A stretch of 36,893 nucleotides of DNA from a virus, in the IMG/VR virus record IMGVR_UViG_3300045988_007631. The stretch is one strand, 5' to 3'. The notes beneath the pieces are model-generated. The model did no database searches and was not told the origin of the DNA. It worked only from the letters and a program-made list of their open reading frames with translations. A program made the translations under genes and the position numbers. Shown here in pieces: positions 3,319-15,025 of this stretch; position 1 is the stretch's first letter, and the number at the start of each line of letters is the position of its first letter.

Positions 3319-3356
3319 GGCCGGGGACGGTTATTCGTCCTCGGCCCATTTTTTTG
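3319..3356. terminator. Bidirectional terminator shared by the micro-ORF (+) and the repressor gene (-)
   Basis: GGCCGGGGAC (3319-3328) pairs with GTCCTCGGCC (3337-3346; one G-U). T-run 3349-3355 on plus, A-run 3311-3316 giving a U-run on minus. The 3-prime arm lies inside the last repressor codons. Confidence 0.65.
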
Positions 3357-3696
3357 CGATATCCTCGAGCAACTGCCATTCTTCAACATCAAGTTTGCTG
3401 ACGATGGAGATAAACCGCTTGCGCGGCGCGTCATCCGGGTCGCGCATGATGGAAGCCATAAACTCCGCAATCTCCTGATTCCGTGTCAGCTTCTGCTTCA
3501 TCTCGCCTTCGCCGGTGCGGAGCCAGTCTTCACTCACGCCGTATTCCCGGCAGATAGCAAGGATCATGGAGTTGTTCGGCGTTCGGACGCCGCTTTCGTA
3601 GCTGGTAATAGTGTTTGCCTGCACACCGATTCGCTCGCCGAAGTCTTTTTGCGTAAGTCCAAGCGACTTGCGGAGTGCCTTAATACGATCTTGCAT
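3331..3696 (-). CDS. cI-like XRE-family repressor (no S24 peptidase domain visible)
   Basis: 121 aa. HTH LGLTQKDFGERIGVQANTITSYESGVRTP. AAGGAGG upstream of ATG 3696. Divergent from the early operon. Confidence 0.8.
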   Translation of the reverse strand: MQDRIKALRKSLGLTQKDFGERIGVQANTITSYESGVRTPNNSMILAICREYGVSEDWLRTGEGEMKQKLTRNQEIAEFMASIMRDPDDAPRKRFISIVSKLDVEEWQLLEDIAKKWAEDE

Positions 3697-3720
3697 AGTT
3701 TGTTACCTCCTTGTGACTAT

Positions 3721-3749
3721 ATAATATCGCAGCAATATCGCGTTGTCAA
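3721..3749 (-). promoter_or_regulatory. Leftward sigma-70-type promoter for the repressor
   Basis: On minus: TTGACA (plus 3744-3749), 17-nt spacer, TATTAT (plus 3721-3726). Confidence 0.6.
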
Positions 3750-3791
3750 TATTTTTTGCAAAAACGGGCTTGACAAATATCGCATTGCGAT
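3723..3791. promoter_or_regulatory. Candidate operators of the genetic switch
   Basis: AATATCGC at 3723-3730, 3734-3741 and 3776-3783. The third sits in the perfect palindrome ATCGCA-T-TGCGAT (3779-3791), inside the rightward promoter spacer. Confidence 0.5.
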
Positions 3792-3798
3792 GTAATAT
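3770..3798 (+). promoter_or_regulatory. Rightward early promoter
   Basis: TTGACA 3770-3775, 17-nt spacer, TAATAT 3793-3798 (TATAAT also at 3796-3801). Confidence 0.65.
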
Positions 3799-3842
3799 AA
3801 TCACACCGAGAGCAATTTGCAACACATCGAGAGGTGAGAACA

Positions 3843-5311: not shown

Positions 5312-5525
5312 GCTGAAGCACACGCTGGAGCTGCTTGTGATCGTGGCAAACAACGCGGCGAATGAGCACGAGAACATGGCTGCACACGCGCAAGTGGCGG
5401 AATTGTCTGAACGGCATGCAAACCTCGCAAAACGCGACAGGGAAAGGACGGAAAACTACAAGCGGCTTATGGCGCTGGTAGAATCGGCAGAACGTCTGCC
5501 GGAGACGAAGGAGGACGCAGAATGA
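5274..5525 (+). CDS. Hypothetical helical protein, array member C (paralog of B)
   Basis: 83 aa. 17 of the first 37 residues identical to B; shared C-terminal ALV.SAE..PETKED. Confidence 0.65.
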   Translation: MRKLILSGDDWFELKHTLELLVIVANNAANEHENMAAHAQVAELSERHANLAKRDRERTENYKRLMALVESAERLPETKEDAE

Positions 5526-5789: not shown

Positions 5790-5847
5790 AAAAATAAAAA
5801 AATTCCCACCAGCGCAAACGGCATGGGACGCCGTTTGCACCAGTGGG
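5790..5847 (-). terminator. Intrinsic terminator for the antisense gene 5858..6109
   Basis: GCAAACGGC (5814-5822) pairs with GCCGTTTGC (5830-5838), plus outer CCCAC/GTGGG (5805-5809 / 5843-5847). The A-tract 5790-5802 gives a U-run on the minus strand. Confidence 0.65.
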
Positions 5848-5857
5848 CGGTGGAACT

Positions 5858-6109
5858 TCAAAGCTGCTCCTCGTACTTGCGAAGCAGGTCAGGCGCTGCT
5901 TGCTTCAGCGCGGCGCGAACTTTCCGGTAGACGCGCTCGCAGTAAGTGTACTGGAAAACAAGCTCTGAGCGGGCCTCGGGTGACATTTTTACGGTATCTG
6001 GCATGGCTTCCCGGCGGCGGGCAAAATCATCCTCGATGTGCATGTAGAGATAAAGCAACTCATTACAGTCAAAGCGGATCTCTTTGTAGCTGACCTCTCT
6101 GGAACTCAA
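5858..6109 (-). CDS. Hypothetical protein encoded opposite to the early operon
   Basis: 83 aa, TTG start with GGAGGTG 7 nt upstream. Own terminator. Possible weak promoter TTGCTC-17-TATTCT on minus within 6110-6175. Confidence 0.6.
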   Translation of the reverse strand: MSSREVSYKEIRFDCNELLYLYMHIEDDFARRREAMPDTVKMSPEARSELVFQYTYCERVYRKVRAALKQAAPDLLRKYEEQL

Positions 6110-6913: not shown

Positions 6914-7101
6914 GGTTTGTGTGTGACGCCTGCCAGGATATCACCAACATCGAGGCTGACCGGATGGAAATCCAGGGCGAGAAGCTGATGGTGTACAGCC
7001 GCGGGCGGCTGGTGTACGTGGCGGATCTGGGGCAGATCATGCTGGCGAAGCTGACGCCGGGGAGAGAGGACGGCAATGGACTTAGAACAAGCCGCGATTG
7101 A
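6910..7101 (+). CDS. Hypothetical protein
   Basis: 63 aa, ATGA overlap with the previous stop. Overlaps the next gene by 26 nt. Confidence 0.5.
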   Translation: MRFVCDACQDITNIEADRMEIQGEKLMVYSRGRLVYVADLGQIMLAKLTPGREDGNGLRTSRD

Positions 7102-7951
7102 GCGGCTGAAAATGGCCTCGGATATGAGCCTGCGCTTGTACAAGCAGCCACTTGTGATTACGTACTCCGGTGGCAAGGACTCGGACGTGCTGCTGCATCT
7201 GGCGGGCGCGGCAGGAATCCCGTATGAGGCGCTGCACTCGCTGACGACAGCTGATGCGCCGGAGACCGTCTATCATGTGCGGGAAACATTCCGAAGGCTG
7301 GAGCTGGCGGGCGTACCGTGCGATATCGATAAGCACAAGCAGCCGGATGGGACGTACATGACCATGTGGCGACTAATCCCGCTGAAGCTGGTGCCGCCGA
7401 CACGCATTATGCGCTACTGCTGCGCGGCGCTCAAAGAGACCAGCGGACGTGGCAGGTGGATCGCGACCGGCGTCCGCTGGGAGGAATCGCAAAAGCGCAA
7501 ATCCCGTGGCGTTATGGAGGCCCTGCACAGGGATAAATCCAAGCGGCTGACACTGATGAACGACAATGACGAAAGCCGGATGCTGATAGAAAATTGCCAG
7601 CTCAAGGGGACCCGAACGGTCAATCCGATTATCGATTGGCCGACCGAATCCATCTGGGATTACTGCGCAGCAGAAAAGATCTGTATGAATCCGCTTTACG
7701 CCTGCGGCGAAGATCGCGTGGGCTGCATCAATTGCCCGATGGCGGGCAAGCACCGGAAGGTGCAGCTCGCGCGCTACCCCGGATACCGGGATGCCTACAT
7801 CCGGGCTTATGGCCGGATGATCGAGGAGCGCCGCAGCCGCGGCCTGCCGTGCGATTGGCAGACCGGCGAAGACGTCCTGCACTGGAGTCTGGAGGACGGC
7901 GTTTTGCCTGGACAAATGGTTCTTGAAGGAATGGAGGAGGACGCGCTATGA
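7076..7951 (+). CDS. PAPS-reductase-family / PP-loop ATP pyrophosphatase-like protein
   Basis: 291 aa. PP-loop VITYSGGKDSDVLL. C-terminal Cys cluster CGEDRVGCINCP. Confidence 0.8.
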   Translation: MDLEQAAIERLKMASDMSLRLYKQPLVITYSGGKDSDVLLHLAGAAGIPYEALHSLTTADAPETVYHVRETFRRLELAGVPCDIDKHKQPDGTYMTMWRLIPLKLVPPTRIMRYCCAALKETSGRGRWIATGVRWEESQKRKSRGVMEALHRDKSKRLTLMNDNDESRMLIENCQLKGTRTVNPIIDWPTESIWDYCAAEKICMNPLYACGEDRVGCINCPMAGKHRKVQLARYPGYRDAYIRAYGRMIEERRSRGLPCDWQTGEDVLHWSLEDGVLPGQMVLEGMEEDAL

Positions 7952-8799
7952 TCGCCCGCGTATTCCCGCGTAAAACGGCCATGTCGCCGACGGATGCGCT
8001 GGCGTTCTTCGGGCAACCAACCATCGAGAATATCGCCGATTGCATCAAAGCGGGCGTGATAGAGGTACATATCTCCGTAACGTTTACGTGGGATTTCGAA
8101 AAGGCCGAAGATCTGTACTACGCATGGCAGATCCTCGGCGTGCCGGTTGAGGTCGGCGGCCCGGCGTTTGATGATCGCATGGGAGACTTTACGCCTGGGC
8201 TGTATCTGCGGGACGGAATGATCCTCACCTCGCGCGGTTGCACAAAGGATTGCTGGTTCTGCTCCGTGCCGCGCTGCGCGCACGGGGAAATCAAAGAGCT
8301 GCCGATCGTGGATGGATGGAACATCCTTGATGACAATATTCTGGGAACGTCAGAAGCACATTTTCGGGCAGTCTGTGACATGCTCAAGCGGCAGAAGCAC
8401 CCGGCAGTATTCTCAGGCGGACTGGAACCGGCGCTGCTCCAGCAGTGGCAAGCGGATCTTCTGTATGAAGCAAAACCGGCGCGCCTATACACGGCATATG
8501 ACACAAAGGACGATCTGGAACCTCTGATCGAGATGGGAAATAAGCTGCGGACGGCAGGATTTCGCCCAGCGAGCCACACCATGTGCTGCTATGTGCTGTG
8601 CGGCTACGACGGAGATAGCTTTGAGGATGCTGAAAAGCGCCTGACGCAGACCATGCAAGCGGGATTTGTGCCGTATGCCATGCTGTTTCGCGGAGAGGAC
8701 GGAAAGTACGATTCTGAATGGCGGAGATTCCAACGCGAATGGTGCCGCCCGATTATCACTGGGAAAAAGTTCAACGAATTTTGGAAGGAGACGACATGA
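7948..8799 (+). CDS. Radical SAM protein
   Basis: 283 aa. Canonical CxxxCxxC in SRGCTKDCWFCSV. ATGA overlap with the PP-loop gene. Confidence 0.75.
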   Translation: MIARVFPRKTAMSPTDALAFFGQPTIENIADCIKAGVIEVHISVTFTWDFEKAEDLYYAWQILGVPVEVGGPAFDDRMGDFTPGLYLRDGMILTSRGCTKDCWFCSVPRCAHGEIKELPIVDGWNILDDNILGTSEAHFRAVCDMLKRQKHPAVFSGGLEPALLQQWQADLLYEAKPARLYTAYDTKDDLEPLIEMGNKLRTAGFRPASHTMCCYVLCGYDGDSFEDAEKRLTQTMQAGFVPYAMLFRGEDGKYDSEWRRFQREWCRPIITGKKFNEFWKETT

Positions 8800-8993
8800 C
8801 AGAAAAGAAAATCGTGCAGACGCTGCGTCGCACATCTACACCGGGCGGTCTATCCGAAGACTGCACGGGCTGCCCGTATTACCGGAAAGAGAAGCCGCCC
8901 GCGGAACTGATAGAAGAACTGGGAGTGGACACATGTTTGCAGATGTATTGCGCGGCGTACCGGAAGCGCCGGAGGAAGGAGCAATCTGAATGA
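8796..8993 (+). CDS. Hypothetical Cys-rich protein
   Basis: 65 aa from ATG 8796 (GGAAGGAG upstream, ATGA overlap). Confidence 0.6.
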   Translation: MTEKKIVQTLRRTSTPGGLSEDCTGCPYYRKEKPPAELIEELGVDTCLQMYCAAYRKRRRKEQSE

Positions 8994-9484
8994 TTTGCGA
9001 ATGTTGCCCACTTTCTGATCAGGAAGATGTCTGCCCAGAAAATGAGGGTAAATACGGTTATGAAACAAGCGACGGTCGGCTCGGCTGCAAGCATCCTCGG
9101 AGTTGGGTGGAAAAACGAGACAGAGAATACACGGGCGCGATCGGCGATATGGGGTTGGATATGGGCGTCGAGATGAACTTTACGGTGGAAGAATACGCAA
9201 GATTGCTCGAAATCTGCAAGCACATGATCGGGCTTGACCATAAGCGACCGTATCACCGGCATGGAAAGGCATTTTACCGCCCATACCGGAACTACTATGA
9301 AGACACACTTTCCGGAAATCGAATTTTAGACAAAGTGCCGCGTGACGTTGTCCAGAAAGAAGTAGGAATAGTCAGCACATGGTACACGCTCACGGACAAT
9401 GGGCTGAAATGGCTTGGACGCCAACTCCACATTACGATTCTGAACAAAAGGAAAGGATGTAGACGGAATGGAACGACTGACTGA
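8990..9484 (+). CDS. Hypothetical protein
   Basis: 164 aa, ATGA overlap. N-terminal CECC..C..C cluster. Confidence 0.65.
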   Translation: MICECCPLSDQEDVCPENEGKYGYETSDGRLGCKHPRSWVEKRDREYTGAIGDMGLDMGVEMNFTVEEYARLLEICKHMIGLDHKRPYHRHGKAFYRPYRNYYEDTLSGNRILDKVPRDVVQKEVGIVSTWYTLTDNGLKWLGRQLHITILNKRKGCRRNGTTD

Positions 9485-9998
9485 ATGGAATGGCGAACAA
9501 ACCCGTCATGCCTATTATCCGCGCTGCTTTGAGGAACCGTGCTACGGCAGCGGGTGCAAAATCAAGGATTGCCCGTTTGAAACAGCGGTGTGTGAGCGAC
9601 TCGCAGCCTACGAGGACACGGGGCTTGAACCGGAAGCAGTGGAAACGGTTAAGCTTGCGCTATGTGCAAAGCGCATGGTTGATCTCGAAACGCTCAACAA
9701 TACGCCAATCAGCAGGCTTGTAGAGCTTGCCGAGGCCGACAAGGACGGGCGCGTGGTGGTGCTGCCGTGCAAAGTGGGCGAGACGGTTTATTTCGTAAAC
9801 GGCAAGCAGATTCTAGAATTTGCGGTGGTAGGGTACGCGGTGGATGAAACAGGTATCTCATGGGTTCACAGTGAGCACGTCGATAAAATAGGGAATACGA
9901 ATGAGCGCACGTTTAGCCCGGATAGATTCGGAAAGAACACTTTTTTCACCCACGAGGAAGCCGAGAAGGCTTTGCAGGAGATGGAGGGCGCGACATGA
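9468..9998 (+). CDS. Hypothetical protein
   Basis: 176 aa. MERLTEW.., Cys cluster, LAAYEDTGLEPE motif that I recall from other Firmicute phage ORFs of unknown function. Confidence 0.65.
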   Translation: MERLTEWNGEQTRHAYYPRCFEEPCYGSGCKIKDCPFETAVCERLAAYEDTGLEPEAVETVKLALCAKRMVDLETLNNTPISRLVELAEADKDGRVVVLPCKVGETVYFVNGKQILEFAVVGYAVDETGISWVHSEHVDKIGNTNERTFSPDRFGKNTFFTHEEAEKALQEMEGAT

Positions 9999-11472: not shown

Positions 11473-11491
11473 GGACGAAAGGAGAATGGAA

Positions 11492-11905
11492 ATGTCACAC
11501 GTAGTCGATCTGACGGGCACGGATTTTGGATATTTGCACGTTATCGGGCGGGATACCAGCAAAAAAGGAGACACGGCACACTGGATCTGTCGGTGTAAAT
11601 GCGGGACAATCTGCAGCAAGGACGGAAAATACCTCCGGAACGGGCGTACAAAAAGCTGCGGCTGCCTCCGGAAAGAACGCGCGGCCATGCTCGTCACCAA
11701 GAAGGATCCAGACAAAAAGCCAAAAGCCGAACCAAAGAAGAAAAAATTCGGCCGCGGCCCGCAGCGGGCAGGCTCCGGGATCTGTTACAACCCACTCTGC
11801 CCGACGCGCAACAACTACCGCGGCGCCTGGAGCTGCACCGAATGCCGCTTCTGCCCGGAACGCAAATTTACCCGCCAGTCGAGGCGGGAGATCATCACAA
11901 TTTGA
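11492..11905 (+). CDS. Zinc-finger protein (W.C.C.CG...SCGC N-terminal module common in phage DNA-binding/endonuclease-associated proteins)
   Basis: ATG 11492 has 6-nt spacing from GGAGA. The track start 11486 abuts the RBS. HWICRCKCG..KSCGC, Lys-rich linker, second Cys cluster. Confidence 0.65.
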   Translation: MSHVVDLTGTDFGYLHVIGRDTSKKGDTAHWICRCKCGTICSKDGKYLRNGRTKSCGCLRKERAAMLVTKKDPDKKPKAEPKKKKFGRGPQRAGSGICYNPLCPTRNNYRGAWSCTECRFCPERKFTRQSRREIITI

Positions 11906-11918
11906 AGGGAGTATCAAA

Positions 11919-12479
11919 ATGGCAGGGATCATGAAAGGAACTGGAGGCGGCGCAGGAATGACAGACACAAAAAACATCTATTGGTCTGCGATTGAGACAT
12001 TTGGCTATGATTTGCAGATTGCGGTTGCAATAGAAGAAATGGCAGAGCTGACAAAGGAGCTGTGCAAGGCGCAGCGGGTGACGTTTGCGGGCCGCGGTGG
12101 GCTTGGGGACGGACTGATTGACAACTATGACGAGATCGCCGAGGAGATCGCGGACGTGCAGATCGTACTGGATGAAATGATGTGGGCGTTCGGTGTAGCG
12201 GCAGAGGTACAGTACGCCAGAAAGCAAAAACTCGCACGGCTGGAAATGCGGATCGAGAAGGCAAGAGAGGCACGCGGGGATAATCGTGAGCATACCGCAA
12301 ATTGGGAAACGCTGGGCCAGAAAGGGAATCCATGGTATGCAAAGCTGAATGGGCCGGGGCCAGATCCCAAAGGAGCACGAGGCGCGTGGGGGCACTGCCC
12401 GAAATGCGGGGCATCAGATTGTGAATGGGACGCTGAGACAGACGTATGCACATGCAAGGCATGCGGATACACGAACTGA
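11919..12479 (+). CDS. MazG-like nucleotide pyrophosphohydrolase with C-terminal zinc ribbon
   Basis: 186 aa from ATG 11919 (AAGGGAG upstream; the track ORF from 11526 is an out-of-context extension). IAVAIEEMAELTKEL and EEIADVQIVLDEM; HCPKCG..CTCKACG. Confidence 0.65.
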   Translation: MAGIMKGTGGGAGMTDTKNIYWSAIETFGYDLQIAVAIEEMAELTKELCKAQRVTFAGRGGLGDGLIDNYDEIAEEIADVQIVLDEMMWAFGVAAEVQYARKQKLARLEMRIEKAREARGDNREHTANWETLGQKGNPWYAKLNGPGPDPKGARGAWGHCPKCGASDCEWDAETDVCTCKACGYTN

Positions 12480-12550
12480 CCGTTGAAACTGTGGCCGGAA
12501 TTTCCGGCCACGCTTTGAGCGGGCAGAAAAAAACAAAGGAGGGCTACAGC

Positions 12551-13387
12551 ATGCAATGGGAACAGGGATGCTTATTCGACGACAACCCGGAATACGATGC
12601 GTTCACGGAGAAATTCAAACAAAAAAAGACAACGGACGACTGCTACACGCCACCGCTTGTTTATGATGCGATCCGGGATTGGGCGTGCAGTGAATATGGG
12701 ATTGATCCGGCCTGCATCGTGCGGCCATTCTATCCGGGTGGGGATTATGAGCGTTTTGACTATCCGGACGGCTGCGTCGTGCTGGACAACCCGCCTTTTT
12801 CGATTCTTTCAAAAATCTGCGAATTCTACATAGACAGAGGGATTGCGTTCTTTCTTTTTGCGCCATCGCTCACGGTGTTCTCCGGCCGATCAGTTGTGAT
12901 GAGGATGAACCATATCATTTGCGATGCAGGCATCACGTATGAAAACGGCGCAGTCGTTCACACGGCGTTTGTAACAAGTTTCGGAGGAAACATCGCGCAG
13001 AGCGCTCCATCACTCGGAAGGGCAGTCGAGCGGGCAATGCAGCAGATAAAGTCGCAGACGAAACGGAAGTTGCCGAAATATACATATCCGGACCATGTGC
13101 TGACGGCAGCCATGCTGCAGAAATATGCGCACTACGGTGTAGAATTTGCGGTTAAGCGCGAGGACTGCACGTGCGTTACCAAACTAGATAGTCAGCGCGA
13201 AACGGGAAAGACAATCTTTGGTTGCGGACTGCTGCTGTCAAACCGAGCTGCAGCCGAGAAAGCCGCAGCCGAGAAAGCCGCAGCCGAGAAAGCCGCAGCC
13301 GAGAAAGCCGCAGCCGAGAAAGCCGCCGCGCACGTCTGGGAGCTGTCTGAACGTGAAAAGGGCATCATTGCGAGCCTCGGGAAATAA
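12551..13387 (+). CDS. Putative DNA N6-adenine methyltransferase (DNPPF motif)
   Basis: 278 aa from ATG 12551 (AAAGGAGGG upstream). DDCYTPP, VVLDNPPFS. (AAEKA)5 linker before a short C-terminal tail. Confidence 0.55.
   Translation: MQWEQGCLFDDNPEYDAFTEKFKQKKTTDDCYTPPLVYDAIRDWACSEYGIDPACIVRPFYPGGDYERFDYPDGCVVLDNPPFSILSKICEFYIDRGIAFFLFAPSLTVFSGRSVVMRMNHIICDAGITYENGAVVHTAFVTSFGGNIAQSAPSLGRAVERAMQQIKSQTKRKLPKYTYPDHVLTAAMLQKYAHYGVEFAVKREDCTCVTKLDSQRETGKTIFGCGLLLSNRAAAEKAAAEKAAAEKAAAEKAAAEKAAAHVWELSEREKGIIASLGK
13250..13324 (+). repeat. Perfect 15-bp x5 tandem repeat inside the methyltransferase gene
   Basis: GCAGCCGAGAAAGCC five times with no mismatch. In frame, encoding AAEKA repeats. Confidence 0.9.
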
Positions 13388-14692: not shown

Positions 14693-15025
14693 ATGCAGCC
14701 ATGGGCCGCACGCTTTTACGCATCCGCGCGCTGGAAGAAATGCCGCGCCGGGTATATCAAGTTCCGCAGGACCATCGACGGCGGGCTCTGCGAAGAGTGC
14801 CGGGACAAGCCGGGCTACATCGTCCACCACAAGCGGGCGCTAACACCGGACAACATCACCGACCCGGACATCAGCCTGTCCTACTCCAACCTCGAGTTCG
14901 TCTGCAAGGACTGCCACGATCAGTTTGACGGGCACGGCGTCGCAAAATCTCTGACGCAAAAAATTTTCTTCGACGCCGCCGGCGACCCGATCCCCCCCGT
15001 CGCGCGAGGCCGGGGCGCCGGCTAG
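14693..15025 (+). CDS. HNH endonuclease (terminase-associated type)
   Basis: 110 aa. CEEC..YIVHHKRAL..N..N.LEFVCKDCHD. Confidence 0.8.
   Translation: MQPWAARFYASARWKKCRAGYIKFRRTIDGGLCEECRDKPGYIVHHKRALTPDNITDPDISLSYSNLEFVCKDCHDQFDGHGVAKSLTQKIFFDAAGDPIPPVARGRGAG

Follow-up and report, generated by a model that had tools for sequence, protein, structure and literature searches.

Homologues of phosphoadenosine phosphosulfate (PAPS) reductase have been reported from many phages, archaeal viruses and plasmids, in which they are uncharacterised (PMC11437467). Relatives in the PAPS-reductase PP-loop superfamily include DndC and BrxP, both linked to DNA modification or defence; DndC has been described as containing an iron-sulfur centre and a cysteine dyad (PMC10853773). 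In the QueC/QueE pair, which is seen in phage DNA modification, a PP-loop enzyme stands beside a radical S-adenosylmethionine (radical-SAM, rSAM) enzyme. The rSAM enzymes of the COG1032 sector (MgmA, AprD4, TokK, PhpK and HpnR) have an N-terminal Rossmann/B12-like domain followed by a core with the motif RGCxxxCxFC. The stretch of DNA analysed here, all 36,893 nucleotides (nt) of IMG/VR virus record IMGVR_UViG_3300045988_007631 (the window), carries two overlapping genes that recall these systems: a PAPS-reductase-like gene (hereafter PAPS) and, immediately downstream, a small rSAM gene. An earlier note on this DNA had put them forward as a candidate, translationally coupled module for a possibly undescribed DNA or nucleotide modification. 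We find that PAPS and rSAM are inherited independently, and the proposal that they act as a coupled pair with a new modification as product is for the most part not borne out.

The two open reading frames (ORFs), their motifs and their overlap are present as the earlier note described them, and its family assignments were right: the first product is a PP-loop, PAPS-reductase-like protein (PF01507, phrog_424) and the second is a radical-SAM protein (phrog_9298 and the fold predicted by AlphaFold2 [AF2]). The locus comprises the following features:

7076-7951, + strand: PAPS-reductase-like PP-loop ATP pyrophosphatase, 291 amino acids (aa), phrog_424 type (PF01507 and phrog_424 matches)
7166-7183, + strand: PP-loop SGGKDS, residues 31-36 (sequence reading)
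7418-7423, + strand: Cys-Cys dyad C115-C116 (conservation)
7724-7735, + strand: CxxC, C217-I-N-C220 (conservation)
7933-7940, + strand: Shine-Dalgarno-like GGAGGAGG, the rSAM gene's own, inside the 3' end of PAPS and 7 nt upstream of the ATG at 7948
7948-7951, + strand: ATGA stop/start overlap of PAPS and rSAM (sequence reading)
7948-8799, + strand: small, stand-alone radical-SAM enzyme of 283 aa from an unnamed phage family (phrog_9298)
7948-8172, + strand: putative truncated Rossmann or B12-binding-like N-terminal domain, residues 1 to ~75 (AF2 model, weak PF02310 matches)
8239-8262, + strand: CxxxCxxC [4Fe-4S]/SAM cluster motif CTKDCWFC, C98/C102/C105 (conservation)
8416-8427, + strand: GGLE, G157-E160, the presumed 'GGE' SAM-binding motif (conservation)
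8796-8993, + strand: small Cys-rich ORF, 65 aa, beginning MTEKKIVQ, with an ATGA overlap with the rSAM stop

The protein database contains 1287 homologues of rSAM and over 7500 of PAPS, so neither gene is a chance ORF. The resemblance to the described systems is partial. Like DndC and BrxP, the PAPS-like protein combines the PP-loop with a Cys dyad and a CxxC, but it scores only 32 bits against the DndC model TIGR03183 (cut-off 290), and its match to BrxP spans only profile positions 113-338 of 779 and lies in the context of a phage early operon. The QueC/QueE analogy is one of concept: the QueC model covers only 53 C-terminal residues of the PAPS-like protein (E-value [E] 4e-5), neither the structural nor the family matches of the rSAM protein include QueE, and the pair is not co-inherited. 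Neither DndA/D/E or BREX genes nor FolE, QueD or DpdA were recognised among the scanned ORFs of the window; the locus is not a Que or Dnd system, in agreement with the earlier note, which saw none of the usual partners. The PAPS-like protein is closest to the phage PHROG 424 proteins, which share its PF01507 domain, PP-loop, length (~290 aa) and position among the early DNA-metabolism genes of temperate phages, and nothing substantive sets it apart from them.

Three sets of loci bear on whether the two genes travel together. The first was centred on rSAM and comprised 80 IMG/VR loci whose rSAM protein is 82-96% identical to that of the window; PAPS was sought within ±6 kb. A full or near-full-length PAPS gene is present in only 23 of these 80 loci, and nine further loci contain PAPS fragments only. 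Eight of the fragments are C-terminal remnants of 22-36 aa lying beside an intact rSAM gene (L013, L016, L019, L020, L040, L041, L043 and L051); the ninth is 65 aa in length and is located ~580 nt upstream. Because the remnants adjoin intact rSAM genes, PAPS has been lost in these phages while rSAM was kept. The second set was centred on PAPS (80 loci, protein 72-99% identical to that of the window), and rSAM is present in seven of them. The third set was anchored on a neutral neighbour, the ORF at 9468-9998, and consisted of the 63 loci having a homologue of this ORF with at least 4 kb of upstream sequence: three loci contain both genes, five rSAM only, 21 PAPS only and 34 neither. The resulting odds ratio is 0.97 (Fisher p = 1.0). 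The co-occurrence beyond chance that the earlier note had set as its own test was therefore not found within this phage group, and the dedicated two-gene module does not hold up at 23/80, 7/80 and an odds ratio of 0.97, with junctions that are re-formed in the absence of the partner.

The boundaries of these gains and losses are sharp. Homology breakpoints fall exactly at ORF boundaries (in L081, for example, similarity stops at the PAPS stop codon), and gain or loss of PAPS or rSAM takes the form of clean single-gene events. In L004, orf6910 (the window's gene before PAPS) is joined by ATGA straight to a 96%-identical rSAM gene (L004:5999-6004); in L081, a 98.6%-identical PAPS gene is joined by ATGA straight to the MTEK gene that follows rSAM in the window (L081:6873-6876). 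As ATGA also forms the alternative junctions, translational coupling is general here and tells nothing particular about the pair; the overlap at 7948-7951 is a seam of the kind that forms between any cassettes lying side by side. Further ATGA overlaps occur in the window at 5522, 8796, 8990, 9995 and 15534. More generally, ATGA overlaps are seen at nearly every cassette boundary of the early operon and are re-formed in alternative gene combinations, and these recurring seams suggest ORF-exact modular exchange. No PAPS-rSAM fusion was found among the long rSAM homologues examined: the candidates for such linkage proved to carry an intein insertion, a ResIII fragment or unannotated extensions, and none has a PAPS domain.

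In the anchor loci, PAPS and rSAM always lie in a narrow slot, 1-2.3 kb upstream of the orf9468 homologue. This slot belongs to a cargo hot spot (L213-L292; positions 7076-9467 of the window) that is filled with varying mixes of ASCH, Mom-like, Dcm C5-methyltransferase, PAPS-like and rSAM genes. ASCH was rejected as a specific partner of PAPS: with 62 of 80 anchor loci carrying it, the gene is simply widespread among these phages. The small Cys-rich ORF that follows rSAM was likewise rejected as a peptide substrate or partner of the rSAM enzyme: a homologue is present in six of the 80 close rSAM loci, and 11 other loci have a homologue without rSAM.

More distant relatives were surveyed using a diverse set of 45 loci, with rSAM proteins 35-69% identical to the query that found them. 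The 246 genes that flank rSAM there sort into 193 clusters, none of which is a conserved partner. The most frequent neighbours are helicase-N6/N4 methyltransferase fusions (seven loci), D12 adenine methyltransferases (four) and C5 methyltransferases (three), along with replication proteins and DUF5131; PAPS ties as the most frequent immediate neighbour. An iterated PAPS hidden Markov model detected a PAPS-family gene near rSAM in six of 47 diverse loci. In a prophage from a Pedobacter metagenome-assembled genome (L172:5721-10727), a 51%-identical rSAM gene sits inside the packaging module, between the genes for the lambda-type large terminase gpA (TerL) and the portal protein.

Several observations weigh against independence. 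The test in the anchor set covers only eight rSAM-positive loci, and all of these belong to a single phage group that very commonly carries PAPS. Where both genes are present in the close rSAM loci, they are adjacent in 22 of 23 cases, and either can come first: ten loci have PAPS upstream, overlapping rSAM, and 13 have it downstream, mostly with an 8-nt gap. Direct adjacency is also found in four of the six diverse loci with both genes, representing about three distant lineages, where random placement in a 10-kb window would give ~15% by a rough estimate. In L175 (Sedimentisphaerales), PAPS is downstream and overlapping; in L206 and L211, and again in L293, it is upstream. The rSAM proteins of these loci share ~38-46% identity with that of the window or with the distant query that was used. 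In the gut phage group, PAPS alleles differ according to gene order, being 72-97% identical when upstream and 62-68% when downstream. A weak, facultative association between PAPS and rSAM therefore remains. As the distance to the orf9468 homologue downstream is always 1-2.3 kb for both genes, the narrow shared slot accounts equally well for adjacency, and a shared insertion hot spot for DNA-modification cargo explains it at least as well as cooperation does.

We favour the explanation that the two genes are independent, single-gene cargo enzymes that have come to lie side by side in an early-operon hot spot, and give this reading a probability of roughly 0.65. As most related phages encode only one of the two, each enzyme works without the other. 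Judging from its neighbours (DNA methyltransferases, ASCH, Mom-like proteins, nucleases and replication genes), each most probably serves in nucleic-acid modification or anti-restriction. Action on nucleic acids is plausible for both enzymes, with the chemistry and substrates predicted from motifs and folds as follows. The PAPS-like enzyme may use ATP to adenylate a substrate oxygen, after which an iron-sulfur site at the CC...CxxC, similar to those of adenosine phosphosulfate (APS) reductase and DndC, would assist replacement or reduction. In the rSAM enzyme, C98, C102 and C105 would hold a [4Fe-4S] cluster, and reductive cleavage of SAM would yield a 5'-deoxyadenosyl radical. The short Rossmann-like domain of the rSAM enzyme may bind a cobamide for methyl transfer, or may only help in substrate binding as in AprD4.

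The rival that survives best is a facultative two-step pathway, in which the PP-loop enzyme and the rSAM enzyme work one after the other at a single nucleobase, nucleotide or backbone position. By analogy with QueC/QueE, or as thiolation followed by methylation, such a pathway would install an undescribed modification, and a phage with a single enzyme would make a simpler product. The adjacency described above speaks for it, both in its two orders in the gut phage group and in its recurrence in about three independent distant lineages, as does the tied first place of PAPS among the genes immediately beside diverse rSAMs. DndC and other members of the PAPS family also act on DNA, and radical chemistry has been claimed for them (PMC10853773). 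We nonetheless consider the pathway unlikely: most relatives carry a single gene of the two, the odds ratio is ~1 in the anchor set, intact rSAM genes are retained beside PAPS remnants, fusions are absent, ATGA coupling is generic, and the narrow insertion slot explains adjacency equally well.

A second alternative centres on the rSAM family, the properties of which bear on it directly. The family is large (1008 representatives at 50% identity) and spans phages and prophages from Bacillota, Bacteroidota, Planctomycetota and Pseudomonadota; none of the 1287 homologues is informatively named. The window's protein matches phrog_9298 (E 5.7e-14) but scores only 23 bits against PF04055 (Radical_SAM), under the gathering cut-off of 29.5; among 75 family members, 66 match PF04055 at E <= 0.1, with a best E of 1.3e-8. 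In the alignment of 75 homologues, C98 and C105 of the cluster motif never vary, and conservation is at least 90% for C102 as well as for G157 and G158 of the GGLE. E160 is invariant in the 13 closer homologues only; from knowledge of the radical-SAM superfamily, we take this GGLE to be the 'GGE' motif. Curated NCBIfam models gave no match for the window's rSAM protein, and other members of the family match such models only weakly (best E 4e-6, to TIGR04072). These weak matches are mostly to B12-binding/rSAM models, namely TIGR04072 (22 of 75 members), PhpK and MgmA, and also to methylthiotransferases, and seven of 75 members weakly match the B12-binding domain PF02310. A literature search found no paper on this rSAM family or on the PAPS/rSAM pair, only general remarks on uncharacterised phage PAPS-reductase homologues.

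The AF2 model of the rSAM protein, based on the 75-sequence alignment, is of high confidence (predicted local distance difference test [pLDDT] 96.1, predicted template modelling score [pTM] 0.90). It predicts a short N-terminal beta-alpha domain of ~75 residues (strands 2-6, 19-21, 39-43 and 67-70; helices 26-35 and 47-63) followed by a radical-SAM partial barrel. All Foldseek matches at E <= 0.001 are radical-SAM enzymes, and in the PDB these are only MgmA (9ccb; E 7e-7, TMq 0.59) and AprD4 (6fd2; E 1e-5), both of them remote at TM scores of 0.55-0.59 and 12-14% identity. MgmA is a B12-dependent glutamine C-methylase and AprD4 is a radical-SAM dehydratase with a B12-like domain but no bound B12, so that of the two structures nearest to this protein, with its ~75 residues preceding the rSAM core, one is a B12 enzyme and the other is B12-free. 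The single rSAM sequence gave no match in a PDB sequence search, and profiles matched the cluster motif only; the BFVD viral structure library gave no informative match (best E 3e-4, to an unnamed protein). Spore photoproduct lyase (SPL), QueE and the glycyl-radical activases were rejected as identities for the protein, as none is among the top 50 structural matches; in the family matches, SPL and the activases are single weak hits (one of 75 members each) and QueE is absent.

The COG1032-sector enzymes provide both the best structural and the best weak sequence matches of the window's rSAM, and share with it the N-terminal Rossmann/B12-like domain and the core that follows. They are 420-680 aa in length, as opposed to ~283 aa for the window's protein, which has an N-terminal domain of only ~75 residues and no C-terminal domain, is phage-encoded and stand-alone, lacks pathway neighbours and scores far under the cut-offs of all family models. 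The model and these matches suggest that the rSAM protein is a miniaturised, stand-alone relative of the B12-binding-domain radical-SAM enzymes. The sector of the superfamily to which it belongs is known, whereas its family is unnamed and of unusually small architecture.

Two other features of this family were observed. One rSAM homologue (P0131) has its CxxxCxxC interrupted by an HNH-endonuclease intein (PF14890, PF13392), which sits between K101 and C102 (RGCPNK|CLSG...VHN|CWFC; equivalent to ~8248-8253 of the window), a classic placement in an active-site motif. Gut phages L295-L307 encode a sister rSAM family that is 27-31% identical over the core only, with ORFs of ~290-355 aa. PAPS is absent from the neighbourhood in 12 of these 13 loci, and L295 has one weak PP-loop match ~580 nt upstream.

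The members of the rSAM family could be widespread minimal B12-binding-like enzymes that act alone to install an undescribed modification of DNA or of tRNA or rRNA (C-methylation at an unactivated carbon, for example), with the PAPS-like enzyme as an occasional helper that diversifies the product; we regard this reading as rather doubtful. A substrate other than nucleic acid is improbable. Such an rSAM enzyme could act on a protein or peptide, as in an MgmA-like methylation of a host or phage protein, or on a small molecule such as a host immune signal or metabolite. The two closest structures are indeed a protein-glutamine methylase (MgmA) and an aminoglycoside dehydratase (AprD4), the weak family matches include lipid, phosphinate and protein methylases, and the window's protein is acidic (isoelectric point [pI] 5.2). 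Set against these points, all of the matches are remote, the median pI of the family is 8.8, no small-peptide or protein partner gene is conserved, and the neighbourhood consists mainly of DNA methyltransferases and replication genes.

The PAPS-like protein is more readily placed. It matches PF01507 (PAPS_reduct) at E 1.3e-19 (71.3 bits; cut-off 22.5) and phrog_424 at E 1e-36, and is 91% identical to a cluster of 569 sequences. When the protein is aligned with divergent homologues, its PP-loop residues S31, G32, G33, D35 and S36 each reach at least 90% conservation. In the same alignment, C115, C217 and C220 are invariant and C116 is at least 90% conserved, while C210 shows no conservation: the C-terminal Cys cluster pointed out previously thus stands with respect to C217 and C220 but not C210. 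CC...CxxC is the [4Fe-4S] ligand pattern of APS reductases. The PADLOC model for BrxP matches the protein at E 1e-20, in the PAPS domain only, and that for DndC at E 1e-7. The scores for the NCBIfam equivalogs CysH, APS reductase, CysD and DndC are all far under their cut-offs. A structure model made from an alignment of close homologues only reached a pLDDT of 49 and was left out of the fold search. The protein is an ordinary member of a well-known phage family. That it is an auxiliary metabolic CysH boosting host assimilatory sulfate reduction, as annotated in many virome papers, with an unrelated rSAM gene beside it, is very improbable: its PF01507 domain and the name 'phosphoadenosine phosphosulfate reductase' used in public sources suit this reading, but it scores far below cut-off against TIGR00434 (29 vs 165 bits), TIGR02055 (30 vs 235) and TIGR02057 (26.5 vs 254), its translated sequence lacks an ECGLH-type C-terminal catalytic motif, its best profile matches are BrxP and archaeal PRK13795-type proteins, and its neighbours are DNA-modification rather than sulfur-metabolism genes, so that a genuine sulfate-assimilation CysH was rejected.

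The window is from a temperate siphophage of gut Oscillospiraceae/Clostridia. Its nearest genomic relatives are prophage regions in metagenome-assembled genomes of Oscillospiraceae/Clostridia, and the same genes also occur on IMG/VR contigs. The following features of the window lie outside the cargo region:

309-1436, - strand: integrase
3331-3696, - strand: CI-like repressor
~3720-3800: divergent promoter-like sites
11486-11905: HNH-type endonuclease, phrog_374-like, early region
12446-13387: DNPPF-motif protein, phrog_21498 (a PHROG of unknown function)
14693-15025: HNH endonuclease PF01844, just 5' of the terminase genes

Judged by the integrase, repressor, HNH endonuclease and TerL, the pair lies in the rightward early operon of this temperate siphophage. 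The operon is long, and encodes the PAPS/rSAM pair, a DUF1064 protein, a MazG-like NTP pyrophosphohydrolase (phrog_2245), the DNPPF protein and a Rep-like initiator (phrog_3584), followed by HNH and TerL; no strong promoter or terminator was found inside it between the pair and the remaining genes. The surroundings had been described as a DNA-metabolism block; the region is indeed one of DNA metabolism and modification, and the DUF1064, MazG-like and Rep proteins were all recovered by family matches. The supposed NPPF methyltransferase is the exception, as this protein belongs to phrog_21498 and has no Pfam methyltransferase match; it ends in a C-terminal (AAEK)n tandem repeat (~13250-13330). 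Also within the rightward operon is an 83-aa ORF on the minus strand (5858-6109), followed by a terminator-like hairpin with a 20-bp stem (5805-5847, - strand). The ORF and hairpin may represent an oppositely transcribed moron.

A fixed module would have meant new DNA-modification chemistry in gut phages, and most of that appeal is gone in its absence. The function of phage PAPS-reductase-like proteins is a long-standing question that this locus makes no more tractable. What the locus does provide is a documented case of ORF-exact cassette shuffling at ATGA junctions, which warns against inferring functional coupling from stop/start overlaps in phage early operons. It also draws attention to an uncharacterised phage rSAM family: with ~1000 clusters at 50% identity, a confident structural model and a recurrent position near DNA methyltransferases, this family is a reasonable biochemical target.

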